Shown piece after piece: positions 21,898 through 64,000 of a stretch of 64,000 nucleotides of DNA. The notes under the pieces are model-generated. The model saw only the letters and a list, made by a program, of their open reading frames with translations, was not told the DNA's origin and made no database searches. Location of the stretch: the NCBI GenBank assembly GCA_964345005.1, contig CAYFPQ010000001.1, positions 38,751 to 102,750 of the forward strand. Direction: 5' to 3'. This DNA is from an uncultured Victivallales bacterium. Lineage in GTDB: Bacteria; Verrucomicrobiota; Kiritimatiellia; UBA8416; JABMPJ01. The number at the start of each line of letters is the position of its first letter. Within the stretch, counting starts at the first letter, position 1. The translations under genes and the position numbers were made by a program.

Positions 21898-25311
<3,414 letters not shown>

Positions 25312-28358: not shown

Positions 28359-28434
28359 GCGGTGCTCCGATTGTCCTGCTCTGACTAAGATTATGCACTG
28401 GGGCAGAAGCGATGTCCAGATGTTAGACAGGGCA

Positions 28435-28917: not shown

Positions 28918-29074
28918 AGTAGGACTCCTCTTGTCTGTTCGTGGCTGTTAGGAGCGAGTCATGGACGTTCCGGCATTTCCCTCGCGCAATCCAGCCGCAG
29001 ATACTGTGGCGATCCCCCTCTTCAGTGATCGGGGGATCATTGACTCCTGCCGGGTAAACCGGCAGGGGGTCAGA

Positions 29075-32581: not shown

Positions 32582-32798
32582 AGCCGCTCCGGCCCGGGGG
32601 AAGGTCCTCCGCCCGGCCGTCCCGGAATACCGGGCCGCCAAGGAGCGGGTGACCTTCCCCCGGGCCTCCGCTGGGGGTAGGTAGGTCCCTGGTGAGGTCG
32701 GAAGGCCTCCGCTGGGGGTACTACCTTTCTGCGGGTGTGGGGGGTATAGGGGGGTATGGAGAATAGGCGCGGCGGAGGGCCGCACGGGGAGTGAGAGT
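32582..32798. repeat. repetitive GC-rich intergenic insert between fabH and fabD (direct repeat of CCTCCGCTGGGGGTA, 2 copies)
   Basis: 'ggcctccgctgggggtaggtagg...ggcctccgctgggggtactacc'. Spacers this long are unusual inside fab operons. Confidence 0.5.
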
Positions 32799-40037: not shown

Positions 40038-40075
40038 GATTCGGGTCCTGTTGCTTTGTTCAGTGCCAGTGGTCG

Positions 40076-40170
40076 ATTGCGGCTCGCTGGGGACAGCTCG
40101 CCCTACCTCATCCTGCGCATGTCTTCACCCGGGCCCAGGTAGGGCTCGCCCTCCGGGCGAGCCGTTCGCC
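40076..40170. repeat. REP-like imperfect hairpin (GGCTCGCTGGGGACAGCTCGCCCTACCT ... AGGTAGGGCTCGCCCTCCGGGCGAGCC)
   Basis: Same family as 53609-53702 and 36621-36651. Overlaps the 3' end of the LbH protein ORF. Confidence 0.65.
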
Positions 40171-41372: not shown

Positions 41373-41488
41373 GGAAGAGGATCAATGTGTAAGAGTATGT
41401 GTACGAGTATGGTCTTGGGTATTCCGTACTTATACACGTACTCGTACACGTCAATCCTCCCGGCGCCGTCAGGCGCCACACGCTCCCG

Positions 41489-43333: not shown

Positions 43334-43377
43334 ATAGCGACTCCCGTTTCCCATGAAGAGTAGCGACGATTGCTGTC

Positions 43378-44535: not shown

Positions 44536-44592
44536 TGCTGCAACTCCCTAAAGGCGTCGCCATCCTACACCATGAACGCCGTTGCACACCAC

Positions 44593-44620
44593 CTTGAACC
44601 TTGAACCGTGAACCCCGAAC
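44593..44620. repeat. heptanucleotide tandem array (CTTGAAC CTTGAAC CGTGAAC CCCGAAC) in the divergent promoter between two GT4 genes
   Basis: Four 7-nt units by direct reading. A further 'CATGAAC' lies 20 nt upstream. Confidence 0.75.
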
Positions 44621-44635
44621 CTGCATAGTCATTTC

Positions 44636-45841
44636 ATGCGTGTGGCAGCGATATTCTTGCGGTTTGGCCCGTATCATATTGCGCGCTTGGAAGCGGCGGG
44701 GCGGCAGCTTGCCGCGGCGGGCCATGAGTTGGTTGGTATCGAGTCGGCCTCGGTGGGCCGGGTGTATGCGTGGGACAGTGTTTCCGGGGGGCAGCACTTC
44801 AAGAAGGTCACTCTGTTCAAGGGGGCGGTTTACGAGGACATTCCGAAGCAAGACGTGTGTGACGCGGTCAGAAAGGTACTCACCGAGACCGGTCCGGATG
44901 TCATCGCGTTGCTCGGTTGGAGTTTTCGTGAACCGGTGACGGCGTTGCAGTGGGCGCTACGCCACGACGTGCCGACGATCATGATGAGCGAGAGTTCTCG
45001 CAGCGATTTCCCTCGGCGGTGGTGGTTGGAGCGGATCAAGAAGGCCGCGGTCGGATGCTGTAATGCAGGCTTGGTTGGCGGCAGTCGTCATGCTGATTAT
45101 CTCGTCGAGCTTGGCATGTCGCGCGACCGGATCTTCCTTGGCTACGACGCGATCGACAACGATTACTTCCGCACGCGTGCAGATGCCGTGCGTGAACAGG
45201 AGCGCAGCCTTCGCAAGCGTTACGAGCTGCCATCGCGCTTTTTTCTCGGTTCAAGTCGCTTCATTCCGAAGAAAAACCTGGCCCGCCTGCTCACAGCATA
45301 TGCTTCCTACCGGCGGAATGTAGGTGAGGGGGCATGGGATCTCGTTTTGTGTGGGGATGGCCCGCTACGCGGTGAGCTGGAAACCATGGTCGACCAGCTG
45401 GACGTTCGTGCTTCGGTCCATTTTCCCGGGTTCGTGCAGTATGACGATCTACCGGTCTATTACGGGCTTGCTTCCGCATTCGTGCACGTGAGTACGGTTG
45501 AGCAGTGGGGGCTGGTCGTGAACGAGGCGGCATCTGCCGGTCTGCCTCTTCTCGTGTCGAACCGGTGTGGCTGTGTACCGGAACTGGTGATCGAGGGCCG
45601 CAACGGGTGGATACTGGATCCCTTGGATGAAGACGGGATGGCGACCGCTATGAAGGCCCTGAGTGACGATCCCGGCACTGCGATCCGGATGGGACAGGAA
45701 TCGCAGGAGGTCGTGGCGGCGTTTTCTCCTCAACGCTTTGCTGACGGCATGGCGTCGGCTGTGTCGTGTGCGCAGGAAATGCCGGCTGCTGCCCGGACGG
45801 GCGTGAACAGGCTCCTGGTGAACTTGATGGCGCTTCGCTAG
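44636..45841 (+). CDS. glycosyltransferase family 4
   Basis: '...VSTVEQWGLVVNEAASAGLPLLVS' GT4 EX7E region. 401 aa. Confidence 0.8.
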   Translation: MRVAAIFLRFGPYHIARLEAAGRQLAAAGHELVGIESASVGRVYAWDSVSGGQHFKKVTLFKGAVYEDIPKQDVCDAVRKVLTETGPDVIALLGWSFREPVTALQWALRHDVPTIMMSESSRSDFPRRWWLERIKKAAVGCCNAGLVGGSRHADYLVELGMSRDRIFLGYDAIDNDYFRTRADAVREQERSLRKRYELPSRFFLGSSRFIPKKNLARLLTAYASYRRNVGEGAWDLVLCGDGPLRGELETMVDQLDVRASVHFPGFVQYDDLPVYYGLASAFVHVSTVEQWGLVVNEAASAGLPLLVSNRCGCVPELVIEGRNGWILDPLDEDGMATAMKALSDDPGTAIRMGQESQEVVAAFSPQRFADGMASAVSCAQEMPAAARTGVNRLLVNLMALR

Positions 45842-45848: not shown

Positions 45849-46424
45849 CTATGACGCCGTGCCGATATCCATCGGATCGCGATCCTTGATCGGTCGGGCC
45901 GGATTGCCGGCTACAACGGTCCACGGTTCCACGTTCCGGGTGACGACGGCCCTTGCCCCGACCACGGCGCCGTCACCGACCTCGATATTCGGGCCCACAA
46001 AAGCGTCGGCGGCAATCCAAGCGTGTTTTCCGACTCGGATAGTGCCTCGCCTGAGCGGGAAAGCGGGGTCTGTGTAGTCATGCGTGCCGGCACACAGGTG
46101 CGCGCCTTGGGAGACGACCGTATCATCGCCGATCGATATCTCGCCCAGGTTGTAGATCTTCACGTCTTCGCCAAGAAGACAGCGGTCACCCAAAGCAAGT
46201 TGCCAGGGCATCTCGATCCAGGTGGACGCCCGCAGGGCCGTGCCGCGGCCCACGCGGGCACCAAAGACACGCAAAATGACGGACCGCACCCCGATCAGCC
46301 GCCAATGTGCCAGCCGCCAGACGGTAAACCAGACTAAACGCCAAACGGCACGTCGCAGATACGTGACGGGCGAATAGGGCCAGCGCTCGCGTTGAACCGG
46401 TTTCGGGCCGTTTTCTGAGCTCAT
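45849..46424 (-). CDS. hexapeptide-repeat acetyltransferase (WcaF/CysE-like sugar O-acetyltransferase)
   Basis: 'IGDDTVVSQGAHLCAGTHDY...VGKHAWIAADAFVGPNIEVGDGAVVGARAVV'. 191 aa. Confidence 0.7.
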   Translation of the reverse strand: MSSENGPKPVQRERWPYSPVTYLRRAVWRLVWFTVWRLAHWRLIGVRSVILRVFGARVGRGTALRASTWIEMPWQLALGDRCLLGEDVKIYNLGEISIGDDTVVSQGAHLCAGTHDYTDPAFPLRRGTIRVGKHAWIAADAFVGPNIEVGDGAVVGARAVVTRNVEPWTVVAGNPARPIKDRDPMDIGTAS

Positions 46425-46434
46425 GGTCTCCTTC

Positions 46435-48042
46435 TCAAGGGTTTCTCTCGGCTACATCGTGGGTTGCCCGGCCACGATACCCGCGCCAGGAGGTTTTAGC
46501 GTTAACCAGTGTCCGCCGCAGATCCTCGCGGTCCGTCCGCGTTAACGAAACAAACCAGATACCGGGCAAGTAGGCAAGGCCGCAAAGGAAGAACTGCGCC
46601 ACGATCTGAAGCAGGCTTGCGGGGGTCCAGACTTGGCGGAGCAGGAGACAGGCCGCGACCAACGGGACGGCTCCCAACAAGGCTCTTCCGGCGCCGCGTA
46701 GGAAGACACTACACCCCAGGGAGAAATGCTTGCAGAGCAGGTAGGGCAGGCAGATCACTTCGAGTAGAAACAGCGAGACCAAGCTACCGGTAGCGATGCC
46801 AAGGAGTCCCATCTTCGCCACTTTTACCAATGTGATGCTGAGGACGACGTTGAGTATGCCTCCCAGAAGCGTTGCGAAGACAGCACCCCGAATTCGCTGG
46901 TAGGCATAAAGGGCTTCCTTCGATACGATGCCTGCCCCGCTCAACAGCAAGGCGCACATAATGGTCCGCATTACCGGCACGCTTTCCATGGCGAAGGATG
47001 ACCTCAGCCACAGGCGAAGGAACGCCTCAGCCTCGATGAAGAGCAGAAGGCAGGGACAGGCCAGTACGATATAACAGTAACGCGTTGCGCGTGTGACCAT
47101 CGTGCGAACCTGATCGAACTGGTGAACGGCTATCTTGGCAATCATGGCTGGACCCAGAATCAGGACGAAAGAGGATGCAAACATGCTGATCTGCAGATAC
47201 CATCGCTGGGCCACGTTGTAGTTCACAACCTGCTGAATTCCTCCCAATTCCTCCAAGTTTGATATCATGATCGAGTCAGTCGCGAAGTAGAGCAGTATAC
47301 CCAGGCTTCCCACAACGGTTAGACCCCCAAAATTGACCAGTTCCCGCATCTCCCTACGGAACCCGGGGGCAAAAAGCCGAATCTTGAGTTGTGAGAGCCC
47401 ACGATATCCGAAAGGGATAACGATCGTCCACAGGCAGATCAATCGCGCAGTGACGGAAAGCCCTACCCATATGACAATGGAAGATCGCCAGAACAGAAAC
47501 AGGGGAATAACAATAACAGCGGGAAGGATCACGCTCATCATGTTGGAGATAGCGTCCAGGTAGAGGCGCTGAGTCATATAGACCGGTGAGCGAAACACGC
47601 AACTGACTATCTGGAAGGCTGCACCTACGCCGAAGATGGCGAATACTCGCCGGGCGGGTGCGACAAGCTCTGCTTCCAGGCCAAAAAGTGAGTGGGCGAA
47701 CATGGAAATCAGTATTGCTGCTCCAGCGATCATGAGGCCCACGAGAATGGAAAGTGCCAATCCGGCCGACAGGACTGCATTCATGCGGTCATACTCGCCG
47801 CGGGCGTAATGGCGTGCTGCAATCCGGTCGTATGACATCCCAACCGCCACGGCAAGGATCGTAACAAACTCAAGTGACTGATGCGCAACCGCCTGCAGCG
47901 CGTAGGCTGGCTTGCCGATGTGACGGAGCAGGAAAGGCAGCAGCAAGAAGCCGACCACCATCGTGATCGACATCGCGACGTAACGACTAATCGTGTGGAA
48001 TGCGACGCGTTGGTCGGGGGGGTTCTGATCGGGAATCTCCAT
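46435..48042 (-). CDS. polysaccharide flippase (Wzx-like, MOP superfamily)
   Basis: Multi-pass membrane protein, ~12-14 TM. Start set at 'MEIPDQ' (ATG 48042); the track ORF extends 37 aa further. Confidence 0.65.
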   Translation of the reverse strand: MEIPDQNPPDQRVAFHTISRYVAMSITMVVGFLLLPFLLRHIGKPAYALQAVAHQSLEFVTILAVAVGMSYDRIAARHYARGEYDRMNAVLSAGLALSILVGLMIAGAAILISMFAHSLFGLEAELVAPARRVFAIFGVGAAFQIVSCVFRSPVYMTQRLYLDAISNMMSVILPAVIVIPLFLFWRSSIVIWVGLSVTARLICLWTIVIPFGYRGLSQLKIRLFAPGFRREMRELVNFGGLTVVGSLGILLYFATDSIMISNLEELGGIQQVVNYNVAQRWYLQISMFASSFVLILGPAMIAKIAVHQFDQVRTMVTRATRYCYIVLACPCLLLFIEAEAFLRLWLRSSFAMESVPVMRTIMCALLLSGAGIVSKEALYAYQRIRGAVFATLLGGILNVVLSITLVKVAKMGLLGIATGSLVSLFLLEVICLPYLLCKHFSLGCSVFLRGAGRALLGAVPLVAACLLLRQVWTPASLLQIVAQFFLCGLAYLPGIWFVSLTRTDREDLRRTLVNAKTSWRGYRGRATHDVAERNP

Positions 48043-49699: not shown

Positions 49700-49770
49700 A
49701 TATTGTGACATTGTGCAAGATACTTGACGATTACAGTCTCTCTGGGTACATTTTGTGACATCATTTGGTC
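49700..49770 (+). promoter_or_regulatory. AT-rich promoter-like region with direct repeats of TTGTGACAT (x2, plus a third partial TATTGTGAAG) upstream of Fic-2
   Basis: 'aatattgtgacattgtgcaag ... acattttgtgacatcatttgg'. GC content falls sharply here. Confidence 0.35.
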
Positions 49771-51248
49771 TTGGGGACTGTATTGTGAAGAAAAATCTAC
49801 CGGAAATCGTCTTTTCATCGTCCGACAGCACCCGCTCCAAGCAGATAAGCCGGCTTGTGCAGGCGGGCCGCCTGCTAAAGATTGCGCCCAGAGTCTACAC
49901 ATCCAACCTCTCTGACACAGCCGACCGAATTGTGCAGCGCAACCTCTACCCGATCCTCGGGCACCGGTTCCCTGGAGCCTTGATCAGCCATAGATCAGCT
50001 CTTGAGGGGCGCCCCACCGATACAGGCGAGATCTTCCTTACCTATTCCTATACCAGGCAGATTGGGCTGCCGGGTGTTCGCGTTCATCTGTTGAAAGGGA
50101 CCGGGCCGACCTCGGACGATCTACCTTTCATGAACGGACTGTTCATCTCGTCGCGCCCGCGGGCATTGCTCGAGAACCTGCAGACGGCCCGCAGCCGGAT
50201 AGGTGCCCCCAAGACACTCGGGAGAGCGGAGATTGAGCGGCGGCTGGACCGTATTTGTCAGGCGCAAGGGGAGCAGGCTCTCAACACCATCCGCGATGCA
50301 GCTCGAAAGCTCTCGACGGAGCTTGGAATGGAGGCGCAATACAAAGCGCTGGACGGCATGATCGGTGCGATTCTGCGAACACGTCCCGCAGCGTCGCTTC
50401 TTTTGCCCGAAGCACGAGCCCGGTCCATGGGGTTTCCTTACGATGCCATGCGCCTGGACATCTTCAACGCTCTTTTCTCAGCACTCATGCAGGCCGATCT
50501 TCCCGTGCGCAGGGAGACGCGCCGGTCGAACGCCGAAACGCAGCACCTGGCGTTCTTCGAGGCTTACTTCTCGAACTACATCGAGGGTACGGAGTTCGAG
50601 ATCGACGAGGCATACGGGATCATTTTCGAAAACAAGATCCCCGGCAATCGACCGGAGGATGCGTACGATGTGATGGGCACGTTTCGCGTGGCGGTTGCGC
50701 TGGATGCAGAGTCGGGCCCTCCGGCATCTTTCGGTGATTTCGTTCAGCAGCTACAGTCTCGGCATCATGATGTCATGGAAGCGCGCCCCGACAGGTTTCC
50801 CGGCGAATTCAAGCTGGAGGTGAACCGCGCCGGACGAACGGTTTTCGTCGAGCCTGAACTCGTGCAGGGAACCCTGCTGAAGGGATTCGAGATGTTGGCT
50901 GCTGTCGAACCAGGATTGCCGCGCGCAATCCTGATCATGTTCCTGGTCGCCGAGGTCCACCCTTTTCTGGACGGCAACGGACGTCTGGCACGTCTCATGA
51001 TGAATGCCGAGCTGGTGCAGGCAGGGCTCAGCCGCATCATTCTGCCTACCGTCTTTCGAGACGACTATCTTCTCGCGTTGCGCGCTCTCTCTCGTTCGCA
51101 TAATCCAGATCCGCTCTTGAAGGCGATGGATTATCTCCAGGAGTACACCAGTCGCCTCCCCATGTTCTCCTACCCGGAAGCGATGCGCGCTCTGACAGGC
51201 AGCAACGCTTTCGCCGAGCCCGAAACGGCACGCCTGAGGATGCTGTAG
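49755..51248 (+). CDS. Fic family protein with long N-terminal domain (AbiEi-antitoxin-like N-terminal segment by inference)
   Basis: Fic motif 'HPFLDGNGRLARL' near the C-terminus. The N-terminal 'ISRLVQAGRLLKIAPRVYT' resembles the AbiEi_4-type wHTH. The track start is a GTG; the true start may be downstream. Confidence 0.75.
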   Translation: MTSFGLGDCIVKKNLPEIVFSSSDSTRSKQISRLVQAGRLLKIAPRVYTSNLSDTADRIVQRNLYPILGHRFPGALISHRSALEGRPTDTGEIFLTYSYTRQIGLPGVRVHLLKGTGPTSDDLPFMNGLFISSRPRALLENLQTARSRIGAPKTLGRAEIERRLDRICQAQGEQALNTIRDAARKLSTELGMEAQYKALDGMIGAILRTRPAASLLLPEARARSMGFPYDAMRLDIFNALFSALMQADLPVRRETRRSNAETQHLAFFEAYFSNYIEGTEFEIDEAYGIIFENKIPGNRPEDAYDVMGTFRVAVALDAESGPPASFGDFVQQLQSRHHDVMEARPDRFPGEFKLEVNRAGRTVFVEPELVQGTLLKGFEMLAAVEPGLPRAILIMFLVAEVHPFLDGNGRLARLMMNAELVQAGLSRIILPTVFRDDYLLALRALSRSHNPDPLLKAMDYLQEYTSRLPMFSYPEAMRALTGSNAFAEPETARLRML

Positions 51249-53716: not shown

Positions 53717-54838
53717 TCAAGCACTGAAAAAACGTTTCAGCTCGCGCCATTGCTCGACGAGTGCTCGCCACGCAGCGTCGAGCTGGGCCTGGTCTTGGCC
53801 GGGAAACGTGCTCCAGCGCACTGTGCACCGACTGGCTTTAGCATCCATTCCCAGTGCCTTGTTGATGGGCGAGAGACTCTTCTTGGCGGAACTGCAGGCG
53901 CTTCCCGTCCCGAGAAAGATCCCCTTCTCCTCGAGGTGGTGCTGCAGCACTTCCCCTTCAACCGGTGCCACGTTGAGCATGGTGATGCAGGGAGAATAGG
54001 TGCCCTCCGGCGATTGTATTGGCTGCGGTACTCCCCCATCGTCGATTGGCTCGAATGCGTAGGGCTCGGCTTGCTGTTCGGAAATCACATTCAGCGCGTT
54101 GCAGAAAGCTCGAATCAATGGAACTGCTACCGTGCCGGGGCGCCAGCCCCTTTCCTGCCCGCCGCCCCGTGTCAATGGCACAAACTTCAGCGAGGGCCTC
54201 AGCACCATGCCTCCAATCCCGACCGGGGCGCCGATCTTGTGTCCCGCGAATGTGAATACGGCCAGGTGAGTCATGTCCGGCGGAGGCAGCTTGCCAAGGC
54301 CTTGGGCTCCGTCGACCAGGACGCAGACATTTGGGTTACGGACAACGGCCTCGGCAGCAATCTCTGCTACTGGCTGCACAAAACCGGCTTCATTATTGAC
54401 CCACTCGATGACGACAACATCCGGTACTGGCAGATGCGCAAGTGACCCGGTGTCAACAGCGCCGCCGCCGTCGAGAGGCATTGGGACGATCTGCCACGAG
54501 TCGTCGAGGGCGTTCACCGGTCCGGCAAGACTCGGGTGTGTTGTAGCCGAGTTCCAGAGAACGCCGCCAGCCGCAAACTGGCCGCAGCAGGCATGAATAC
54601 CGATGTTGTTGGACTCTGTACCACCGGAGGTGAAGATCACTTCGTCAGGATCGCATCCCAGGTACCTCGCAACCTGTTTGCGACATGCATCCAGCGCCTT
54701 GCGGGCCGTCAGCCCCAGCTCGTAACGTGTCCCCGCGTTCCAGCCCAGCTCCTGCAAATCGCGCGCCAACTGGTCAGCAACTTCGGCGCAGACCGGTGAT
54801 GTGGCTGCATGGTCGAGATACGTGATTTCCTCTGGCAT
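53717..54838 (-). CDS. cysteine desulfurase (class V aminotransferase, NifS/IscS-like)
   Basis: 'YLDHAATSP' N-terminus. PLP Lys region 'AGHKIGAPVGIGGMV'. Start set at ATG 54838 ('MPEEITYLDHAA'). Confidence 0.85.
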   Translation of the reverse strand: MPEEITYLDHAATSPVCAEVADQLARDLQELGWNAGTRYELGLTARKALDACRKQVARYLGCDPDEVIFTSGGTESNNIGIHACCGQFAAGGVLWNSATTHPSLAGPVNALDDSWQIVPMPLDGGGAVDTGSLAHLPVPDVVVIEWVNNEAGFVQPVAEIAAEAVVRNPNVCVLVDGAQGLGKLPPPDMTHLAVFTFAGHKIGAPVGIGGMVLRPSLKFVPLTRGGGQERGWRPGTVAVPLIRAFCNALNVISEQQAEPYAFEPIDDGGVPQPIQSPEGTYSPCITMLNVAPVEGEVLQHHLEEKGIFLGTGSACSSAKKSLSPINKALGMDAKASRCTVRWSTFPGQDQAQLDAAWRALVEQWRELKRFFSA

Positions 54839-54899
54839 GGAGAGAAGTATGACACACCCCTCCAAGTCCGTGAACCGTTTTCAGATTCAGCATACCGGG

Positions 54900-54960
54900 T
54901 TGCGATCTTCGATTCTCTGGTTGGGTATTGGATATTGGGTTCCCTTTCGCTATAACACCG
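54900..54960. repeat. half-copy (right-arm-like) of the MITE family (…TTGGGTATTGGATATTGGGTTCC…)
   Basis: Similarity to MITE arm 'ttggctgttggatattgagattcc'. Lies just upstream of the debranching-enzyme start. Confidence 0.4.
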
Positions 54961-54962
54961 CC

Positions 54963-57900
54963 ATGCCAGTCGCCCAAACTCCAAGAGCTGGATCACGATT
55001 TCGCCTCTTTCGCGGCGATACGGTCACGTTCACGCTGACGTGTCACCCGGGCTGCGAAGGGGCTGCGTACCTGCGTACGAATATCGGTTGGGCGGCCGTT
55101 CGCCGGCAGGAGATCATATCGTTCGTAGAAGAACAGACTCCCGTTCTCGACCGCGACTGGCACGATGTACCGATGCGGCAGGTGGGGTCGAACCGCTGGG
55201 AACTGTCTCTTGGTTTATGCGAGGTCGGGCGGTTCGAAGCAAAACCATACCTGCTGCCGGGTCCCGGCCAGCAGCCGGTGTGGGACCATGGCGAGAATGT
55301 CGTCATTAAGGTTGAGCCGGCCGAGACGGTCTGCGGCAACTCGGTCTACAGCGCGTTCGTGCGCCAGTTCGGCCCGAACCGCACGTCAGGGGCTGTGTCC
55401 GAGGAACAGGACGCGGCGGCCGCGACACTGGACAAGGATGGGTTCACAGTCATTCCGCGTTCCGGTACCTTCCGCGAGTTGATCCAGGAGCTCGACCATA
55501 TCATCGGTACGCTGGGTTTTCGAACACTTCACCTCTTGCCGGTTCATCCTGTGCCCACGACCTACGCGCGGATGGGACGGTTCGGGAGTCCGTTCGCACC
55601 GCTCGACTTCATGGATGTGGATCCGGCGATGGCCGAGTTCGATCGACGCACCACGCCGCTTGACCAATACATCGAGTTGATCGATGCGATCCATGCGCGC
55701 GGCGGACGCCTGCTCATGGATATTCCAGCCAACCACACCGGCTGGGCATCTCACCTGCAGAACGAGCATCCGGAATGGTTTGCCCGCCACCATGACAGCA
55801 GCTTCCGCTCTCCCGGGGCGTGGGGCGTTACGTGGGAAGACCTTTCGGAGCTGGACTATGGGACAGGAAAGGCGCTGTGGGAGGCCATGGCAGATGTGTT
55901 CCTGCGCTGGTGTCGTCTTGGCGTCGACGGTTTCCGCTGCGATGCCGGCTATATGGTGCCCTACGACGTGTGGAACTACATCATCTCCAGAGTTCGTGCG
56001 CAGTTCCCCGACACAATCTTCCTGTTGGAGGGACTCGGTGGACCGCGGGCAGCGACCGAACAGCTTCTCGATGGCGCCAACATGAACTGGGCCTACTCCG
56101 AGCTGTTTCAGAGCTACTCGTCTCGCCAGGTGGAGGCGGAAGTCATGGGCGGGGCACGGATGGCCGATACGCGCGGGCTGATGGTGCATTACGCTGAGAC
56201 GCACGACAACACCCGCATGGCCGCCAGCTCCCCGGCCTATTCCCGCATGCGTACTGCCTTGACGGCCCTGACCTCAACAGAGGGTGCGTTCGGCATCACG
56301 GCAGGTGTCGAGTGGTTTGCCACTGAACGCGTCGATGTGCATGGAGCCCCATCGCTCAACTGGGGAAGCAGTGAAAACCAGGTGACGGAAGTGGGACGCC
56401 TCAACGGGCTCCTGGCCACGCATCCGGCCTTTGGCCCGGGCACCGAATTCGAGTGGGTTTCCCAAGCTGACGGGCACACCGTGGCTGTGCTGCGGAGTCG
56501 TCGGGATGGCGAGTGCGTCCTGGTGCTTGCGAATCTGGACTGCGACCACCAGCGCCACGTCCAGTGGGCGCGCACGCGTTTTGAGGTGGACGGAGACGTG
56601 GTCGACCTGCTCTCGGGCCACACCGTGGTACCGGCAGAAGAGGGCAACCACTACCGCATAACGCTTGAACCAGCCGCCGTCCTCTGTCTTGGATGTGAGC
56701 AGGCCGCGAACGGTCCCGCAGACGAGCCGGCTGCCGTCCTTCGGCAGCGCGCACGCGCGGCTGTCCTCGAGCTGTATACCACGATCACCGGCTGCGGCGA
56801 TGTGGGTGATCTCGATCTGGACGATGCGACAAGCTGCTATCTGGCCGATCCGGTAGCCTACTGGCGGACGCTCTCGCCGTATGGTTCGTTTGCACTGACG
56901 ACATGGCAGTGGCCACAGGACCTCTCCCGCGATGTCATGTGGCCGGATGGGCACGCGCTGCTTGTGCAGTGTGAACACCCGTTCCGGATCGACCTGGCGG
57001 AGGGTGGGGCGGTTACCTATCGCGCCCGCAGCTTTGAAATCGAGAGGGGTCACGTGGTACTGATTCCGCCGCGCGCGACTCCCGACGACCATGCCATCCG
57101 CCGTGCCGTGCTGTATCTCCGCGTGCACGACCCGAAAGGAACACAGCGTGGGGAGGACACCCTTCTGCTTCTCCCTTCCGCCAGCCTGGCGCCGGCAACG
57201 ACCGTGGACGGGGCCGTGGCGGTTGAACGTCGCTGCTACGCGCTCTGCACGAACGGCCGGGGCGCGATGGCGCAGGTGCGAGGCGCCTGGGGCGAACTCG
57301 AAAGCCAGTACGATGCGCTTCTTGCGGGGAACTGTCATCCCGGCTACCCGGTCGATCGGCAGGTGATGCTCACGCGTTGTCGTGTGTGGGTGGTCTACCA
57401 GGGCTACTACCAGGAATTGGGCCGTACCTGTTTGCGCTCGTTCGGGCAGCAGCCGGATGGCGAAGTGCGGTGGCGGTTCGATGTTCCGGTGGGGCGAGGG
57501 AAGGTTATGGCGCTTGACGTTGCGTTGCGGATGTTGCGCGGGGAGAACGCCGTTGAGCTGGTATTTTCCCGGATCGAAGAAGCGTGGGGCGAGGGTGTGT
57601 TGTCCGGAGATGAGCCCGTACGCCTGGTCATCAGGCCGGACGTTGAGGATCGCATCAACCATGGCAAGACCAAGGCGTTTGCCGGGCCGGAAGCTCACTG
57701 GCCGCAAGCAGTCGAACGTACGAGAGAGGGTTTCCTGTTCCGGCCGGACAAACAGCGCGCCCTGCGCGTAGCCGTGTCGGAAGGACGCTTCCAGTGGGAG
57801 CCCGAGTGGACTTACATGGTTCATCATCAGCACGAAGCCGACCGGGGGCTTGATGCCGTTTCCGATCTGTTCAGTCCTGGGTATCTGGACTGCGAACTGA

Positions 57901-59192
57901 CCGGAGGCGAGTCGACGATGCTTCGGGCGTCGATCGAGGGCCCGAAGCGTCCCCACATCGACCCGGTTGATTTGGCCGAACCCGTTGACGCCGACACGGT
58001 CTCGCTGCTCGCGGTACTGCGGAGGGCGATGGACGTCTATGTCGTCCGGCGTGACGATTCGCTGACGGTCATTGCCGGCTACCCGTGGTTTCTTGATTGG
58101 GGGCGCGATACGTTGATCTGCCTGCGCGGCATGATCGCGGCGGGGATGCATGCGGAGTGTCGCGACATTCTGCGGCAGTTCGCCCGGTTCGAGAGGCAGG
58201 GCACGCTGCCGAACATGATCCGGGGCGGCGATGACTCCGACCGCGACACCTCCGATGCGCCGCTCTGGTTCATCGTGTCATGTGAAGACCTTTTCGATAC
58301 CGGCGAGTCCACGTTACTGGATGTGGATTGCGATGGGCGATCGCTCAAGGAGGTCGTCCGTTCGATTGTCGATCACTATCTGAGGGGCACACCGAACGGA
58401 ATTGTTGTGGATGCCGACAGCGGGTTGGTGTTCAGTCCTTCACACTACACCTGGATGGATACGAACCATCCGGCCGGTACCCCGCGCGAAGGGTACCCCG
58501 TTGAGATACAGGCGCTCTGGTACCGTGCACTCTCGTTCGTGGCGAGGATCGATGACGATGCGGAACTGGCGGAGCTGGCGAAGCATGTACAGGCGTCGAT
58601 CGCTTCCCACTATGTCCGCGCCGACGGATCGGGCCTCGCCGATTGCCTGCACGCGGCTCCCGGCATTCCCGCGGCAGCTGCCGTTGCCGACGACCATGTG
58701 CGCTCCAATCAGCTTTTGGCCGTGACGCTCGGCGCCATTACCTCTCCAGACGACTGTATGGCGGTCTTGCATGCCTGCGAGCAGCTCCTGGTGCCGGGTG
58801 CTATCCGCAGCCTGGCGGATCGTCCCGTTGAGCATGCGTTGCCGGTCCGCCGGGAAGGCGAACTACTCAACGACCCGCACCGCCCCTACCAGGGCCAGTA
58901 CCGCGGGGATGAGGACACACGGCGTAAACCGGCCTACCATAACGGAACGGCTTGGACGTGGCCGTTCCCCTCCTACTGCGAGGCGCTGGTCCAGATCCAT
59001 GGACCAGCCGCGCGTGACACGGCCCTGGCGCTGCTGCGGAGCAGTGAGGTGCTGCTCGGCCGGGGTTGCATTGGGCAGATTCCAGAAATCCTTGATGGCG
59101 ACGCCCCGCACATGGATCGAGGGTGTGGAGCCCAGGCCTGGGGCGTCACAGAGCTCTATCGTGTGCTTGCACTTCTGCAGCGAAACTCATAG
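54963..59192 (+). CDS. eukaryote-type two-domain glycogen debranching enzyme (N-terminal GH13-like 4-alpha-glucanotransferase + C-terminal amylo-alpha-1,6-glucosidase/GDE_C)
   Basis: N-terminal GH13 catalytic motifs 'LLMDIPANHTGWAS', 'GVDGFRCDAGYMVP', 'LLEGLG'. C-terminal six-hairpin glucosidase motifs 'GYPWFLDWGRDTLI', 'HYTWMDTNHPAGTPREGYPVEIQALWY'. 1,409 aa from ATG 54963. Confidence 0.8.
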   Translation: MPVAQTPRAGSRFRLFRGDTVTFTLTCHPGCEGAAYLRTNIGWAAVRRQEIISFVEEQTPVLDRDWHDVPMRQVGSNRWELSLGLCEVGRFEAKPYLLPGPGQQPVWDHGENVVIKVEPAETVCGNSVYSAFVRQFGPNRTSGAVSEEQDAAAATLDKDGFTVIPRSGTFRELIQELDHIIGTLGFRTLHLLPVHPVPTTYARMGRFGSPFAPLDFMDVDPAMAEFDRRTTPLDQYIELIDAIHARGGRLLMDIPANHTGWASHLQNEHPEWFARHHDSSFRSPGAWGVTWEDLSELDYGTGKALWEAMADVFLRWCRLGVDGFRCDAGYMVPYDVWNYIISRVRAQFPDTIFLLEGLGGPRAATEQLLDGANMNWAYSELFQSYSSRQVEAEVMGGARMADTRGLMVHYAETHDNTRMAASSPAYSRMRTALTALTSTEGAFGITAGVEWFATERVDVHGAPSLNWGSSENQVTEVGRLNGLLATHPAFGPGTEFEWVSQADGHTVAVLRSRRDGECVLVLANLDCDHQRHVQWARTRFEVDGDVVDLLSGHTVVPAEEGNHYRITLEPAAVLCLGCEQAANGPADEPAAVLRQRARAAVLELYTTITGCGDVGDLDLDDATSCYLADPVAYWRTLSPYGSFALTTWQWPQDLSRDVMWPDGHALLVQCEHPFRIDLAEGGAVTYRARSFEIERGHVVLIPPRATPDDHAIRRAVLYLRVHDPKGTQRGEDTLLLLPSASLAPATTVDGAVAVERRCYALCTNGRGAMAQVRGAWGELESQYDALLAGNCHPGYPVDRQVMLTRCRVWVVYQGYYQELGRTCLRSFGQQPDGEVRWRFDVPVGRGKVMALDVALRMLRGENAVELVFSRIEEAWGEGVLSGDEPVRLVIRPDVEDRINHGKTKAFAGPEAHWPQAVERTREGFLFRPDKQRALRVAVSEGRFQWEPEWTYMVHHQHEADRGLDAVSDLFSPGYLDCELTGGESTMLRASIEGPKRPHIDPVDLAEPVDADTVSLLAVLRRAMDVYVVRRDDSLTVIAGYPWFLDWGRDTLICLRGMIAAGMHAECRDILRQFARFERQGTLPNMIRGGDDSDRDTSDAPLWFIVSCEDLFDTGESTLLDVDCDGRSLKEVVRSIVDHYLRGTPNGIVVDADSGLVFSPSHYTWMDTNHPAGTPREGYPVEIQALWYRALSFVARIDDDAELAELAKHVQASIASHYVRADGSGLADCLHAAPGIPAAAAVADDHVRSNQLLAVTLGAITSPDDCMAVLHACEQLLVPGAIRSLADRPVEHALPVRREGELLNDPHRPYQGQYRGDEDTRRKPAYHNGTAWTWPFPSYCEALVQIHGPAARDTALALLRSSEVLLGRGCIGQIPEILDGDAPHMDRGCGAQAWGVTELYRVLALLQRNS

Positions 59193-59305
59193 AGTCGCTC
59201 CACATCTTGAATGAATTGGATTGCCTCCGTACTGCCCCGTTTCCTATGGGCGCTGGATCTTGGGCTCAGGGCGGCGAAACCAACAATGTTGGGAGATTCG
59301 TGCGT

Positions 59306-59578
59306 ATGGGTGCACAGGTAAAACGCCGGCGGGTCAAGTTCCAGATCCGCGCCGAAGAGAACAGCAAGGTGTCTATAGCAGGCACCTTCAACGGGTGGAA
59401 TCCGGACAAGCACATTCTCAAGAAGAAGGGCGACATGTTCGAACTGAACGTGCTGCTGGAGCCCGGTCAATATCAATACAAGTTTGTTGTGAACGGCATC
59501 TGGTGTGTCGATCCGGAACGTCCGGACTGGTCGCCGAACGAGTATGGTTCACTGAATAGCGTGGTCACAGTAACGTAG
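59306..59578 (+). CDS. small CBM48/AMPK-beta-like glycogen-binding domain protein
   Basis: 'VKFQIRAEENSKVSIAGTFNGWNPDKHILKK..GDMFELNVLLEPGQYQYKFVVNGIWCVDPE' is a classic CBM48/E-set fold signature. Start ambiguous; the track ORF begins at 59123. Confidence 0.6.
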   Translation: MGAQVKRRRVKFQIRAEENSKVSIAGTFNGWNPDKHILKKKGDMFELNVLLEPGQYQYKFVVNGIWCVDPERPDWSPNEYGSLNSVVTVT

Positions 59579-59659
59579 TCCATCCCCTCCACGAACGTGG
59601 CGTGCCAGACTGCCGGTCATCCAGTGACTTCCATTGCAAGATAGAAAGAGTCTTACTCA

Positions 59660-62218
59660 ATGAAGAATATCCAACTTTTCAACGTGGCGCCGTCGGTGCC
59701 TAAAGAGGTCCGTTTTCTCGAAACCTTGGCCAACAACCTCTGGTGGTGTTGGTGTCCCGATGCCATCGACCTGTTTCGGCGTATCGATCCAGCGTTGTGG
59801 ACGGAGTGCAAGCACAGCCCGCTTAAGTTTTTCAGCAAGCTGCCGCCTGAGCGGTTGGCCGAGCTCCCTTCCGACGACGGGTTCATCGCGCATATGGAAG
59901 AGGTGCGTGAACTGTTCGAGGCTCAAGTTCGCAAGGACTGTAAGGGCGAGGATACCTGTGCCGCCCGCGATGGTGTTGCCTACTTCTCGCTTGAGTATGG
60001 CATTCATGAGAGCGTGCGTCTCTACTCCGGCGGGCTGGGGTGTCTGGCAGGCGACCACCTGAAGTCGGCCTCCGATCTGAACCTGCCCCTTGTGGCTGTC
60101 GGGCTTATGTACCGTCAGGGCTATTTCCAGCAGTATCTCGACGAAGACGGGATGCAGCGGGAATTCTATCCCGAGAGCGAAATGCACCACATGCCCATGA
60201 AGAAGGTCTGCGACGGCGACAACAGCCCCATCCAGATCGGTGTGCCCTTCCCGGATGGGGAACTGCGCGCCGAGATATGGCAGCTCAACGTGGGGCGTGT
60301 GCCTCTCTTCCTTCTGGATGCCAATATCCCGGCCAACAAGCCCGAGTACCGTGGCATAACGGCTCAGCTCTACGGTGGCGACCAGGTTATGCGTATCCGC
60401 CAGGAGATGCTCCTGGGTGTCGGCGGCGTACGTGCGTTGCTGGCCATGGGCTTCGATCCGCATGTCTACCATCTCAATGAGGGGCATGCCGCATTTCTCG
60501 GACTGGGTCGTATTGCGCACCTGGTCCAGTCGCAGGGCATCGACACCAAGACCGCGTTCGAGGTGATGTCGCGGACCAACATCTTCACCACGCATACGCC
60601 GGTACCGGCCGGGAACGAGACTTTTCCCGCCACGATGCTTAAGCCGTACTTCAAGGCATTGGAGGCGGAGGTGGGTGTCAAAGCCACCGATGCCATCAAG
60701 TGGGGGCAGACTCCGGGCACCAATCCCGACGAGGACGTGTCCATGACCATTCTTGGCATGCGCTGTGCCCACTTCTACAACGCCGTCAGCAAGCTGCACG
60801 GCGTTGTCGCGCGAAAGATGTGGTCTTATCTCTGGCCGGACCTCCCCAACGAGGAAGTGCCGATCGGACATGTCACGAACGGCGTTCACATTTCGTCGTG
60901 GCTATCGACCGACATCGCGGCACTGTTCGACCGCTACCTCGGACGTGACTGGCGAGATCATCTCGGCAATGAGAACGTCGTCAAGCGTATCGACCGCATT
61001 CCGGCTGACATGCTCTGGCGCACACACGAACTGGGGCGTGCCCGACTGGTCCGCGCCACGCGCGAGCATGGCGAGCAGCAGTATAAGGCCCGCAACGCGA
61101 CGCGGCAGGAACTCGATGCCATATCGTCGGTGTTCGATGCGGACACACTGACGATCGGTTTCGCACGACGTTTTGCCTCGTACAAGCGCGCGACGCTGCT
61201 CCTGAAACACCCGGAACGCTTCGAGGAACTGTTGACTAGCGAGGAGCGTCCGGTGCAGCTCGTATTCGCCGGGAAGGCGCATCCGGCAGACGAGGCCGGC
61301 AAGAACCTGATCAAGGAGATCATTGCTTTTTCGCGCAAGCCCTCGGTACGGCACAAGATCATCTTTCTCGAGAACTACGATATTCAGCTTGCCCGCTACA
61401 TGGTGCAGGGCGTTGACGTCTGGATGAACACGCCGCGCCGTCCGCAAGAGGCGAGCGGTACTTCGGGCATGAAGGCGGCGGCCAACGGCGGCCTGCATTG
61501 CAGCATCCTCGATGGCTGGTGGGACGAGGGTTACACCCCCGATACCGGCTGGGCCATCGGAAACCGTGCGGACTACGTCAACAGCGACTACCAGGACCAG
61601 GTCGAGTCACAAGCGCTCTACAACCTGCTTGAGAACGAGGTCATTCCGACATTTTATACGCGCTCCAAGAGCGACGTGCCCGAGCGGTGGGTGGAGATGA
61701 TGAAGGCGTCGATGAAGATGACGCTTGGTTTTTTCACCACGCATCGTATGCTCGAGGAGTACCGTGATCGGTACTACAGTGCCGCGCTCGATGTCTATGA
61801 CCGCTTGATCGGGGATGACGCGAAGGAGGCGAAGGCACTGGTATCGCAGCGGAAACGGCTTGAGTCGTGCTGGGGCGGTGTGAATATCGAGCTGCCTGTG
61901 CCGGATCGTGACCTGGCCGGTTTGCACGTGGGTGACACGTTCGTCGTAACCAGTCTGGTTGAGCTGGGCGAGCTGACACCGGACGAGGTAGACGTGGAGG
62001 TCTACTACGGGATCGCCGATTCGCAGAACGAGATTGTTGAGAGCGAGGTCCAGGAGATGACCATGGCGGAGGAGCAAGGTGACGGGCGATACCTCTATCG
62101 CCAGGAGTTGCCGTGCAGCAGGGCGGGCCGCTATGGACTGACGGCCAGGGTGGTCCCGAAGGGGTCTGACTGGTCGAGCACGATGCCCGGCTATACCACC
62201 TGGGCCAACGGGGCATAA
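59660..62218 (+). CDS. glgP: alpha-glucan (glycogen/maltodextrin) phosphorylase, GT35, ~850-aa type
   Basis: 'YFSLEYGIHESVRLYSGGLGCLAGDHLKSASDL' N-terminal signature. PLP Lys region '...GTSGMKAAANGGL'. Confidence 0.9.
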   Translation: MKNIQLFNVAPSVPKEVRFLETLANNLWWCWCPDAIDLFRRIDPALWTECKHSPLKFFSKLPPERLAELPSDDGFIAHMEEVRELFEAQVRKDCKGEDTCAARDGVAYFSLEYGIHESVRLYSGGLGCLAGDHLKSASDLNLPLVAVGLMYRQGYFQQYLDEDGMQREFYPESEMHHMPMKKVCDGDNSPIQIGVPFPDGELRAEIWQLNVGRVPLFLLDANIPANKPEYRGITAQLYGGDQVMRIRQEMLLGVGGVRALLAMGFDPHVYHLNEGHAAFLGLGRIAHLVQSQGIDTKTAFEVMSRTNIFTTHTPVPAGNETFPATMLKPYFKALEAEVGVKATDAIKWGQTPGTNPDEDVSMTILGMRCAHFYNAVSKLHGVVARKMWSYLWPDLPNEEVPIGHVTNGVHISSWLSTDIAALFDRYLGRDWRDHLGNENVVKRIDRIPADMLWRTHELGRARLVRATREHGEQQYKARNATRQELDAISSVFDADTLTIGFARRFASYKRATLLLKHPERFEELLTSEERPVQLVFAGKAHPADEAGKNLIKEIIAFSRKPSVRHKIIFLENYDIQLARYMVQGVDVWMNTPRRPQEASGTSGMKAAANGGLHCSILDGWWDEGYTPDTGWAIGNRADYVNSDYQDQVESQALYNLLENEVIPTFYTRSKSDVPERWVEMMKASMKMTLGFFTTHRMLEEYRDRYYSAALDVYDRLIGDDAKEAKALVSQRKRLESCWGGVNIELPVPDRDLAGLHVGDTFVVTSLVELGELTPDEVDVEVYYGIADSQNEIVESEVQEMTMAEEQGDGRYLYRQELPCSRAGRYGLTARVVPKGSDWSSTMPGYTTWANGA

Positions 62219-62247
62219 GCCCACATGCCGAAGGGGCAGAGAGGCAG

Positions 62248-63783
62248 ATGATGCAACGAAATCCGCGCATCCTGATCGTCACTCCGGAGATCACCTACCT
62301 GCCCAACGGCATGGGAAATGCCGCCAACCACATGCGCGCCAAGGCCGGTGGTCTGGCCGACGTTTCGGCTTCTCTGGTCTCGGCGCTTTTCGAGCTTGGC
62401 GCAGAGGTCCATGTGGCGCTCCCGCACTATCGGCGCATGTTCAACGTGGATGTCGGTCGCCTAATCAATGACGAGCTGCGCATCTACAAGCAGGTGCTCC
62501 CCGATTCGCGAATCCACCTGGCCCAGGACCGAATCTTCTACTATCAGAGCGAGGTCTACAGCTCGTCGGTGGACACCAGTAAGCGGCTGGCGCTCGTCTT
62601 TCAGCGCGAGGTGATCAACAACATCGTTCCCAAGGTCAATCCCGACCTGATTCACTGCAACGATTGGATGACAGGGCTGATCCCCGCCATGGCAAGGCGC
62701 CACGGCATTCCTTCCCTGATGACCATTCACAACATCCACACCCAGGAAGTCACGCTCGACCAAGTCGAGGAAACGGGAATCGACGCGGCCGAGTTCTGGC
62801 AGGACCTGTTCTACAAGTGGTATGCCGGCGACTACGAATCGACGCGCTGGAGCAACCCGGTTGACCTGCTCGCCAGCGGTATTTTTGCCTCCCATTTCGT
62901 GAACACCGTGAGTCCTTCCTTCCTCTATGAGGTGTGCGACGGTCAGCACGCCTTCGTACCGCCCTCCGTCCGTAGCGAGATTGCCCAGAAGATGATGGCG
63001 GGCTGTGCTTCCGGTATTCTCAACGCTCCCGATCCCTCGTTCGATCCGGCAACCGACGAGCTGATCCAGCACCGGTTCGGCCCCGACACCCACACCGAAG
63101 CGAAACGGAAGAACAAGCTGCATCTGCAGGAGCGGCTGGGGCTTGTACAGGATGCCGATGCCCCGATGCTCTTCTGGCCGTCACGTCTCGATCCCGTCCA
63201 GAAGGGCTGCCAGATTCTGGCCGATATTCTCTACAACCTGGTTTCGCACTACGAGGACGAGAACCTCCAAGTGGTCTTCGTGGCAGCCGGGCCGTTTCAG
63301 ATCTGGTTTCGTGGGATTGTCAACCAGCACAAACTGCATGATCGAGTGGCGGTGTACGGCTTTGACGAAGAGACCTCGCACCAGGCCTATGCGGGTTCGG
63401 ACTTCATGCTGATGCCATCCCTGTTTGAACCGTGCGGCCTGCCGCAGATGGTGAGTTCCATCTACGGGTCGCTCCCGGTTGTGCATGATACTGGGGGGTT
63501 GCATGATACCGTGACCATGCTCGATGCAGGTCGGGGCACCGGGAACGGCTTCCCCTTCGCGACGTACGACGGAAACGGGCTTTGGTGGGCGATCGAGCGG
63601 GCGATGAATTTCTACCGGCTGCCGGCCGAAGTAAAGGAGGCGCAAATCAGCCGCATCATGCGCGAAAGCACGGCGCGGTTCACCCATGCCAACACTGCGC
63701 GGGAGTACATTGATATCTATGAACGCATGCTCGAACGCCCCCTTGTCGCTCATAAGACGGGACCCGTGGCTGGAACCCTATAG
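62248..63783 (+). CDS. glgA: glycogen synthase (GT5)
   Basis: 'ILIVTPEITYLP...KAGGLADV' matches the KTGGL-type motif. Glycos_transf_1 C-terminal domain. 511 aa. Confidence 0.85.
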   Translation: MMQRNPRILIVTPEITYLPNGMGNAANHMRAKAGGLADVSASLVSALFELGAEVHVALPHYRRMFNVDVGRLINDELRIYKQVLPDSRIHLAQDRIFYYQSEVYSSSVDTSKRLALVFQREVINNIVPKVNPDLIHCNDWMTGLIPAMARRHGIPSLMTIHNIHTQEVTLDQVEETGIDAAEFWQDLFYKWYAGDYESTRWSNPVDLLASGIFASHFVNTVSPSFLYEVCDGQHAFVPPSVRSEIAQKMMAGCASGILNAPDPSFDPATDELIQHRFGPDTHTEAKRKNKLHLQERLGLVQDADAPMLFWPSRLDPVQKGCQILADILYNLVSHYEDENLQVVFVAAGPFQIWFRGIVNQHKLHDRVAVYGFDEETSHQAYAGSDFMLMPSLFEPCGLPQMVSSIYGSLPVVHDTGGLHDTVTMLDAGRGTGNGFPFATYDGNGLWWAIERAMNFYRLPAEVKEAQISRIMRESTARFTHANTAREYIDIYERMLERPLVAHKTGPVAGTL

Positions 63784-64000
63784 CGAGTGCCTTCAGCGGC
63801 GCTGGAACCGTGTCAACGAGGCTGCGGCGCGACTGGCAGCCGACCGGGATCTTTCCGACCACTCCCTGAGCTACGATTACTACGGCCTGCACCGTACGCC
63901 GGATGGCTGGGTCTTTCGCGAGTGGGCTCCGAACGCGACAGCCATCCATCTGCTGGGTCCGTTCAATGACTGGAGCGAGTCTGACGCCTTCTTGATGCGT
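63743..64000 (+). CDS. glgB: 1,4-alpha-glucan branching enzyme, eukaryote-like GH13_8 type, 5' part only (runs off window)
   Basis: Frame-2 translation '...DPWLEPYSECLQRRWNRVNEAAARLAADRDLSDHSLSYDYYGLHRTPDGWVFREWAPNATAIHLLGPFNDWSES' aligns with the N-terminal region of GH13_8 branching enzymes (cf. human GBE1 'DPYLKPY...FQRR...GYESFGVHR...KEWAPGA...GDFNGWN'). No ATG after the upstream stop at 63710; TTG 63743 is assumed. Overlaps the glgA 3' end. Confidence 0.55.
   Translation, partial: MSLIRRDPWLEPYSECLQRRWNRVNEAAARLAADRDLSDHSLSYDYYGLHRTPDGWVFREWAPNATAIHLLGPFNDWSESDAFLMR

Follow-up and report, generated by a model that had tools for sequence, protein, structure and literature searches.

Gene content of the glycogen locus

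We analysed a stretch of 64,000 nucleotides (nt) from contig CAYFPQ010000001.1 of an uncultured Victivallales bacterium (GenBank assembly GCA_964345005.1); this whole stretch is referred to below as the window, and all positions are numbered within it. Five genes, all on the + strand, lie in the focus region, 54963-64000, and the last of them leaves the window end (Table 1). The first gene encodes a protein of 1,409 amino acids (aa) in which a GH13 module precedes a GH133 module, and is followed by genes for a small CBM48 protein, an alpha-glucan phosphorylase, a glycogen/starch synthase and a branching enzyme. A five-gene glycogen locus had been proposed here in an earlier interpretation of the DNA letters and translated reading frames (hereafter the sequence-only reading), and we recovered all five open reading frames (ORFs). 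Spacers of 113, 81 and 29 nt separate successive genes, and the fifth gene begins 65 or 41 nt before the end of glgA, according to which of two starts is used. Among 30 other window ORFs of at least 246 aa, a Pfam scan detected no glgC, glgX or malQ, which bears out the earlier statement that the window holds neither of the first two. A scan of the operon for promoters and terminators returned nothing exceeding shuffled expectation, and a tRNA scan of the window returned none.

The start of the fusion gene at ATG 54963 is backed by homologs of 1,407-1,410 aa which begin at an equivalent position. An identical product in the NCBI protein database (our P0001) is called as 1,447 aa, with a start 38 codons 5' of this ATG. 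The longer call would run into the divergent cysteine-desulfurase-like gene (Aminotran_5) at 53717-54865 (region 54801-54962), and it is probably over-extended, because the 1,407-1,410-aa homologs start at the equivalent of ATG 54963.

Table 1. Genes, domains and catalytic residues of the focus region. AF2, AlphaFold2; pLDDT, predicted local distance difference test.
Feature	Position	Strand	Basis
Fusion gene, 1,409 aa	54963..59192	+	ORF; Pfam/NCBIfam matches; >100 full-length homologs; AF2 models, pLDDT 87 and 91
Fusion protein, domain order: N-terminal beta-sandwich, GH13 module, linker, GDE_N, GDE_C (GH133)	54963..59192	+	
N-terminal beta-sandwich, aa 1-130, no Pfam match	54963..55352	+	AF2 all-beta, pLDDT >90
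GH13 barrel and C domain, aa ~160-580	55440..56702	+	PDB matches 3DHU, 4GKL, GlgE
GH13 non-reducing-end cap D293	codon 55839-55841	+	residue alignment; codon checked
GH13 nucleophile D327	codon 55941-55943	+	residue alignment; codon checked
GH13 acid/base E356	codon 56028-56030	+	residue alignment; codon checked
GH13 transition-state D415	codon 56205-56207	+	residue alignment; codon checked
GDE_N beta-sandwich of prokaryotic debranching enzymes, aa 761-985	57243..57917	+	Pfam; all-beta in AF2
GDE_C/GH133 (alpha/alpha)6 barrel, aa 1025-1400	58035..59162	+	Pfam; fold match 7VMA
D1166 in TWMD (1163-1166)	codon 58458-58460	+	aligned with C. glabrata GDE D1241
E1375 in PEILDG	codon 59085-59087	+	invariant in homologs
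CBM48 gene, 90 aa	59306..59578	+	Pfam
GT35 alpha-glucan phosphorylase gene, DUF3417/TIGR02094 type, 852 aa	59660..62218	+	NCBIfam
GT5 glycogen/starch synthase gene, 511 aa	62248..63783	+	Glyco_transf_5 and GT1 domains
GH13_8-type branching enzyme gene, 5' end (94 aa in window)	63719 (ATG) or 63743 (TTG)..64000	+	

The N-terminal half carries an intact GH13 catalytic site

Within the 1,409-aa protein, the Pfam Alpha-amylase model is matched at aa 167-351 with 27.8 bits (cut-off 22). Membership of GH13 is seen in the conserved regions I-IV, all of which are present (DIPANH at 253-258, GFRCDAG at 323-329, LLEGLGG at 354-360 and ETHDN at 412-416), and in the Asp/Glu/Asp triad D327/E356/D415; both the regions and the triad are invariant across 61 aligned homologs. 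An AF2 model of residues 1-600 (pLDDT 87) consists of a beta-sandwich at the N-terminus, then a TIM (triosephosphate isomerase) barrel, then a C-terminal beta domain, and Foldseek returns hundreds of GH13 matches to it. The sequence-only reading had assigned to this half a GH13 domain with the full catalytic set; a check for absence of the triad was run, and the triad is intact.

The module appears closest to the exo-maltogenic amylases of GH13_48 and to GlgE, and not to GH13_25, the subfamily represented in eukaryotic glycogen debranching enzyme (GDE). Its top sequence match in PDB is 3DHU (E 1.6e-28 for the single sequence and 6.5e-40 for the family profile), and 4GKL is matched by the module sequence at E 8e-19. 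These two structures, from L. plantarum and from T. neapolitana (AmyB), are of the exo-acting maltogenic amylases by which GH13_48 is defined (PMC11239784). GlgE is matched by the family profile at E 2e-17, and the maltosyltransferase of T. maritima is also among the closest solved proteins; GH13_45-like amylases, cyclodextrin glucanotransferases and neopullulanases in PDB are reached by the same profile. By fold, GlgE (4U33) comes first (E 1.5e-31, query-normalized TM-score 0.68), while 3DHU and 4GKL cover the GH13 core with target-normalized TM-scores of 0.77-0.80 at about 18-22% identity. Residue D293 of the module aligns with Asp135 of AmyB, the non-reducing-end-binding residue typical of GH13_48 (PMC11239784). 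GH13_48 thus gives the best sequence match and shares this residue, yet identity is only about 20%, and the module probably forms a separate clade outside the assigned CAZy subfamilies.

The hDGE_amylase model of GH13_25 (PF14701) reaches only 19.7 bits on this half (cut-off 27), over just 89 residues. The family profile reaches GDE chains in PDB via a single GH133 stretch only, not through their glucanotransferase domain, and eukaryotic GDE is absent from the top 50 Foldseek matches of the GH13 half. Nor is this a GlgX-type enzyme, from which the sequence-only reading had also set the protein apart: Pfam detects no CBM48 inside the 1,409-aa protein, and its best sequence matches include neither models nor chains of GlgX, isoamylase or pullulanase.

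The C-terminal half resembles prokaryotic GDE_N-GDE_C enzymes

Two Pfam families account for most of the C-terminal half, namely GDE_N (PF12439) at aa 761-985 (103.5 bits, E 1.5e-29) and GDE_C at aa 1025-1400 (227 bits, E 4e-67). In the AF2 model of residues 591-1409 (pLDDT 91), a helical linker is followed by a large beta-sandwich and then by an (alpha/alpha)6 barrel. A fold search with this half placed the amylo-alpha-1,6-glucosidase of Thermococcus gammatolerans (7VMA) at the top (E 2.6e-17), followed by other (alpha/alpha)6 enzymes, with the GDE of C. glabrata at E about 1e-13. With a profile built on the GDE_C part, the GDEs of C. glabrata (E 7e-17) and human (E 2e-15) are detected, and D1166 aligns with D1241 of the C. 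glabrata enzyme, a catalytic residue (PMC12219210). The amylo-alpha-1,6-glucosidase domain assigned to this half from the letters alone is therefore well marked, both by the GDE_C score and by the aligned aspartate. Judging from its motif position, E1375 would correspond to C. glabrata E1492, and D1166 and E1375 are invariant in the 61 homologs.

We interpret the C-terminal half as a unit of prokaryotic GDE_N-GDE_C type, because the archaeal-type model TIGR01561 scores 161 bits on it (over 943-1340; cut-off 364) and the eukaryotic equivalog TIGR01531 only 35.8 bits (cut-off 1399.55). Neither hGDE_N nor hGDE_central is matched in the 1,409-aa protein by Pfam at E <= 0.01.

The accompanying genes

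The free-standing CBM48 protein that had been read behind the fusion gene scores above the gathering cut-offs of both relevant Pfam models (AMPK1_CBM, 57.5 bits against 26.8; CBM_48, 28.1 bits against 22.4). Its start is an ATG 61 codons into an ORF of 151 aa, which matches the 90-aa calls in relatives; 90-aa orthologs lie at the same position in three contigs of relatives (L001-L003). The GT35 phosphorylase is similarly secure, with 817.7 bits on TIGR02094 (cut-off 191.7) in addition to DUF3417, and is of the prokaryotic DUF3417 type. The gene read as glgA encodes a protein with a Glyco_transf_5 match of 121 bits. It lies below every NCBIfam GlgA equivalog cut-off (281 bits on TIGR02095, for which 328 are needed), and its best PDB match is Arabidopsis SS4 (155 bits) followed by E. 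coli GlgA (135 bits). Its profile matches thus place it clearly in GT5, with a sequence that appears divergent from the GlgA equivalog models.

The branching enzyme is represented in the window by a fragment of 94 aa, whose truncated ORF opens with a CBM48 domain (Pfam) and whose top PDB match is human GBE1 (E 5.6e-11). Residues 10-50 of the fragment (DPWLEPY...RR) align only with eukaryote-type enzymes, and GlgB chains of GH13_9 align from about residue 51; this N-terminal helical segment is present in GH13_8 and lacking in GH13_9. Orthologs that are 87-89% identical have lengths of 681-692 aa, and the full-length ortholog from contig L001, with 87% identity across the fragment, reaches 692 bits on human GBE1 (4BZY), 612 bits on rice branching enzyme I (BEI, 3AMK) and 156-177 bits on GlgB chains. 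Because the L001 ortholog scores so much higher on GBE1 and BEI than on GlgB, the enzyme is of GH13_8 type, as the sequence-only reading had proposed in preference to GH13_9. A bacterial GH13_8 enzyme is not new in itself, since prokaryotic members of the subfamily are already on record as 'minor exceptions' (PMC12149516, PMC8116748).

It had also been supposed that this gene overlaps glgA by about 40 nt and uses a non-ATG start. The overlap stands, at 65 nt from ATG 63719 (MNACSNAPLS) or 41 nt from TTG 63743. A non-ATG start is not required, because L002 and L003 share ATG 63719, which has GGAG 13 nt upstream; no such GGAG precedes the TTG.

Distribution of the fusion and conservation of the operon

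The 1,409-aa protein has over 100 homologs of full length (1,400-1,470 aa), with identities of 50-84%. They come from assemblies of Kiritimatiellae, Lentisphaerae, Verrucomicrobia, Desulfobacteraceae and Fermentibacteria, and the window is closest to metagenome-assembled genomes (MAGs) of Kiritimatiellae. In a locus scan that took one genome per species, the fusion and its operon recur at no fewer than 379 confirmed loci (in Desulfobacterales, Smithella, Victivallales, Kiritimatiellales and Planctomycetaceae). Hosts among the listed loci include Desulfobacter curvatus DSM 3379, D. postgatei, Desulfosudis oleivorans, Desulfatirhabdium butyrativorans, Victivallis vadensis, Lentisphaera, Pontiella, Smithella and one Planctomycetaceae MAG.

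Gene order was examined at 80 loci, and the fusion is unbroken in all of them wherever the sequence reaches far enough. The complete order of fusion gene, CBM48, GlgP, GlgA and branching enzyme is kept in four contigs of relatives (L001-L004). About 35 of the 80 loci, from Desulfobacterales, Smithella, Victivallales and Planctomycetaceae, have the order fusion gene, GlgP, GlgA, branching enzyme, with or without a detectable CBM48 gene; by a local hidden Markov model (HMM), a CBM48 gene lies directly 3' of the fusion gene in about 28 loci, Desulfobacterales and Smithella included. No glgC was seen near the GT5 synthase gene in any locus examined.

Variants of the arrangement were also observed. 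At four Pontiella/Kiritimatiellales loci (L008, L009, L016 and L050) the fusion gene is followed by GlgA and the branching enzyme, with no phosphorylase or CBM48 gene detected between them. The operon of Desulfobacter has the same three genes; in D. curvatus DSM 3379 (L076, 14342-20347) a canonical glycogen phosphorylase of 812 aa, encoded on the opposite strand (PF00343, 1,047 bits), takes the place of the DUF3417-type enzyme, and a CBM48-like ORF lies at 20397-20762 (-). In a Victivallales MAG (L005), a second CBM48-like protein is encoded by a 199-aa ORF at 696-1292 (-), about 9 kb upstream of the operon (HMM E 6e-33).

Of 1.84 billion protein cluster representatives, no more than 182 match the GH13 module closely (E <= 1e-30). 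Among the first 90 of these 182, 53 are full-length fusions, and the short ones stop within conserved motifs or in frameshift-like tails. The module appears to occur in fused form only, no stand-alone form being evident among those 90.

Proposed function and alternative explanations

We consider it likely that the 1,409-aa protein is a bifunctional debranching enzyme of cytoplasmic glycogen turnover, because it has two intact, invariant sites and is encoded in one operon with a glycogen-binding module and with enzymes for phosphorolysis, chain synthesis and branching. The two active sites would act independently, a retaining GH13 site (D327, E356, D415) on alpha-1,4 bonds and an inverting GH133 site (D1166, E1375) on alpha-1,6 bonds. 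In such a cycle, the GT35 phosphorylase would trim the outer chains of glycogen and halt close to branch points; the GH13 module would then remove or transfer what remains of the alpha-1,4-linked part of the stub, and the GH133 module would cleave the leftover alpha-1,6 bond, after which phosphorolysis could resume. The GT5 synthase and the GH13_8 branching enzyme would rebuild the polymer, and the small CBM48 protein, possibly together with the N-terminal beta-sandwich, may anchor the machinery to the glycogen particle. Shortening or transfer of the stub is suggested for the GH13 module because its nearest relatives (GH13_48 maltogenic amylases, GlgE and the T. maritima maltosyltransferase) act on maltosyl units at non-reducing ends, and because the capping Asp is conserved. 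The substrates, the order of reactions, the choice between transfer and hydrolysis at the GH13 site and the role of the CBM48 protein are what we infer from these comparisons. A secreted starch-degrading enzyme was also considered and rejected, as the N-terminus of the fusion protein does not look like a signal peptide (judged by eye) and a synthase and a branching enzyme are encoded in the operon.

Several observations weigh against a bifunctional debranching enzyme. The Alpha-amylase match in Pfam is weak; HMMER did not align E1375 with C. glabrata E1492; and both activities are assigned by homology to characterized enzymes that are only about 14-22% identical. The GH13_48 relatives are hydrolases that release maltose, and removal of maltose from a four-glucose limit stub would leave a maltosyl stub rather than the single glucose taken by eukaryotic GH133. 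Moreover, the 7VMA enzyme is reported to release whole branches with a degree of polymerization of 13-24 (PMC9142091), so that the GH133 half may itself debranch directly, and stub trimming would then have no obvious need.

The last of these points leads to the alternative that survives best, namely that the GH133 half cuts off whole branches in the manner of isoamylase or GlgX, and that the GH13 half is an exo-amylase which degrades the freed chains to maltose. In this case the enzyme would not act indirectly on one stub after another. It would agree with 7VMA being the best fold match of the C-terminal half, with that half being far nearer to the prokaryotic than to the eukaryotic model, and with AmyB and 3DHU, as exo-acting maltose-releasing hydrolases, being the nearest characterized GH13 relatives. 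However, 7VMA is only 14% identical and is not found by the sequence profile at E <= 1, whereas the glucosidase (GC) domain of the eukaryotic enzyme is, at the E-value given above. No gene for malQ or a maltose phosphorylase was found in the window or in the flanks sampled at five distant loci, and a permanent fusion is easier to explain if both sites work on the same branch. We regard direct debranching followed by trimming as unlikely, though it is the main rival to the indirect route that we prefer.

A second alternative concerns origin. The sequence-only reading had seen in this protein the architecture of eukaryotic AGL/Gdb1. That description holds for the order of the domains, GH13 and then GH133, but not for the families, as hDGE_amylase stays below its cut-off, hGDE_N and hGDE_central are missing and a prokaryotic GDE_N is present. 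A common fused ancestor with the eukaryotic enzyme, by descent or by transfer in either direction, with GH13 parts that diverged past subfamily recognition, would account for the identical domain order and for the detection of eukaryotic GDE by the GH133 profile with its catalytic Asp aligned. Also in its favour are a weak precomputed hDGE_amylase match in 14 of 120 homologs and the presence in the operon of a GH13_8 branching enzyme, from a subfamily otherwise typical of eukaryotes. Set against this, at least five other GH13 groups lie nearer to the GH13 module than the glucanotransferase domain of GDE does, GDE_N stands in place of the two hGDE domains, and TIGR01561 lies far above TIGR01531 for the C-terminal half; on balance we think such an ancestor quite improbable. 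The fusion probably arose within bacteria, by the joining of a GH13_48/GlgE-like module to a GDE_N-GDE_C enzyme of prokaryotic type, and would be convergent with AGL/Gdb1 rather than orthologous to it. We favour independent assembly because hDGE_amylase remains sub-cut-off, because TIGR01561 greatly exceeds TIGR01531, and because GDE chains are matched only via GH133.

Finally, a GlgE-like polymerase, in which the GH13 module would be a maltosyltransferase building alpha-1,4 chains from maltose-1-phosphate and coupling synthesis to branch editing, would suit the overall best fold match (4U33), the significant profile match to GlgE and the JGI name 'starch synthase (maltosyl-transferring)' of several homologs, but was rejected as most improbable, given that no GlgE model is among the NCBIfam matches, that regions I and II follow the GH13_48 pattern (DIPANH; GFRCDAG..VP) and not that of GlgE (LQCAPDH; FRVDNPHTKP), that no treS, pep2 or maltokinase of a maltose-1-phosphate pathway was found among the window ORFs scanned or the flanks sampled at other loci, and that the operon already has a GT5 synthase.

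Other features of the window

The other scanned ORFs of the window include GlmS-like, phosphoglucosamine-mutase-like, GT4, fatty-acid synthesis, Fic, AAA_14/DUF4143, ThiI and cysteine-desulfurase-like proteins. A cell-envelope sugar cluster at 38682-45841 comprises the phosphoglucosamine-mutase-like gene, a 415-aa hexapeptide-repeat protein, the GlmS-like gene and two GT4 genes. The 415-aa protein (40125-41372) was considered as a GlgC candidate and rejected, since it has no NTP_transferase match and lies between the GlmS-like and GlmM-like genes.

A Fic/DOC gene with a Fic_N domain is flanked by two paralogous AAA_14/DUF4143 ATPase genes (12733-13914, 15653-16801 and 16918-18084 for the group), and a second Fic-domain protein is encoded at 49755-51248. 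The AAA_14/DUF4143-Fic group may form an island of mobile or defence type that has no relation to the glycogen operon. At 19450-25104 a 772-aa DUF2961 protein (-) adjoins a 1,075-aa protein with a Laminin_G_3/concanavalin-like domain; these are possibly polysaccharide-degrading enzymes typical of Kiritimatiellia. Four ORFs, of 543, 417, 350 and 248 aa (17834-19465, 31616-32869, 325-1377 and 28282-29028), have no Pfam match at E <= 1e-5. The AT skew at 46001-48000 is +0.21, compared with about -0.05 elsewhere, and coincides with a 572-aa MatE-like gene (-).

Implications and comparison with known systems

Papers of 2014, 2016 and 2025 state that bacteria are without such a fusion: bacterial and archaeal homologs were described only as short GDE_N-GDE_C proteins in 2014 (PMC4236520), and the bifunctional GDE was said in 2025 to be 'not in bacteria' (PMC12219210). 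A full-text literature search, whose coverage took in neither most subscription journals nor CAZy, found no account of a bacterial GH13-GH133 fusion; proteins of this family nevertheless have entries in public databases, where their names are generic. Whether debranching is direct (by GlgX, in bacteria) or indirect (by the GH13-GH133 fusion, in eukaryotes) serves as a diagnostic character in arguments on the origin of eukaryotic glycogen metabolism and of starch metabolism; since such a fusion is widespread in bacteria and its operon is conserved, this character is not exclusive.

Tentatively, and with rather more doubt than confidence, we suggest that at least two distant lineages, the Desulfobacterota and the Planctomycetes-Verrucomicrobia-Chlamydiae (PVC) group, debranch glycogen indirectly in eukaryotic style, by a convergent two-site enzyme encoded in an operon with a GH13_8 enzyme and a small glycogen-binding protein. 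If this is true, the textbook rule which assigns indirect debranching to eukaryotes and direct debranching to bacteria is overturned. In a stronger form of the proposal, the bacterial toolkit and the ancestral glycogen pathway of eukaryotes would be linked through descent or transfer. The fusion is in addition a natural experiment in convergent enzyme design, for which culturable hosts exist (Desulfobacter curvatus, Victivallis vadensis), and the operon may explain how polyglucose is recycled in these anaerobes, many of which have no obvious glgX in the operon context.

Among bacterial systems, GlgX/TreX enzymes (GH13_11) have an N-terminal CBM48 and an isoamylase-type GH13 domain, and the fusion protein has neither. 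GlgE (GH13_3; 4U33, 3ZSS) shares with the GH13 module its fold and a significant sequence similarity, but differs in regions I and II, in the absence of a family match and in the lack of a maltose-1-phosphate context. With GH13_48 (4GKL, 3DHU) the module has in common the GSP(Y/F)A motif, regions I-IV and the non-reducing-end Asp; unlike those enzymes, it has an extra N-terminal beta-sandwich and appears only fused to GH133. The C-terminal 650 aa of the fusion have the same layout as prokaryotic GDE_N-GDE_C enzymes (TIGR01561; the GH133 'GlgX' of Sulfolobus acidocaldarius; 7VMA). Those enzymes stand alone at about 600-700 aa, whereas here the unit sits behind a 600-aa GH13 module and a linker of about 150 aa.

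The remaining comparisons are with eukaryotes. The L001 branching enzyme aligns end to end with GBE1, and differs from the GH13_8 enzymes GBE1 (4BZY) and rice BEI (3AMK) in being bacterial and operon-encoded. Like eukaryotic AGL/Gdb1 (GH13_25 and GH133; 5D06, 8ZEQ), the fusion is one chain of about 1,400-1,530 aa with GH13 N-terminal to GH133, both catalytic sets present and the catalytic Asp of TWMD aligned; unlike it, the bacterial protein has a GH13 module that appears to lie outside GH13_25, has GDE_N and neither hGDE_N nor hGDE_central, and is the product of a gene in a bacterial operon.

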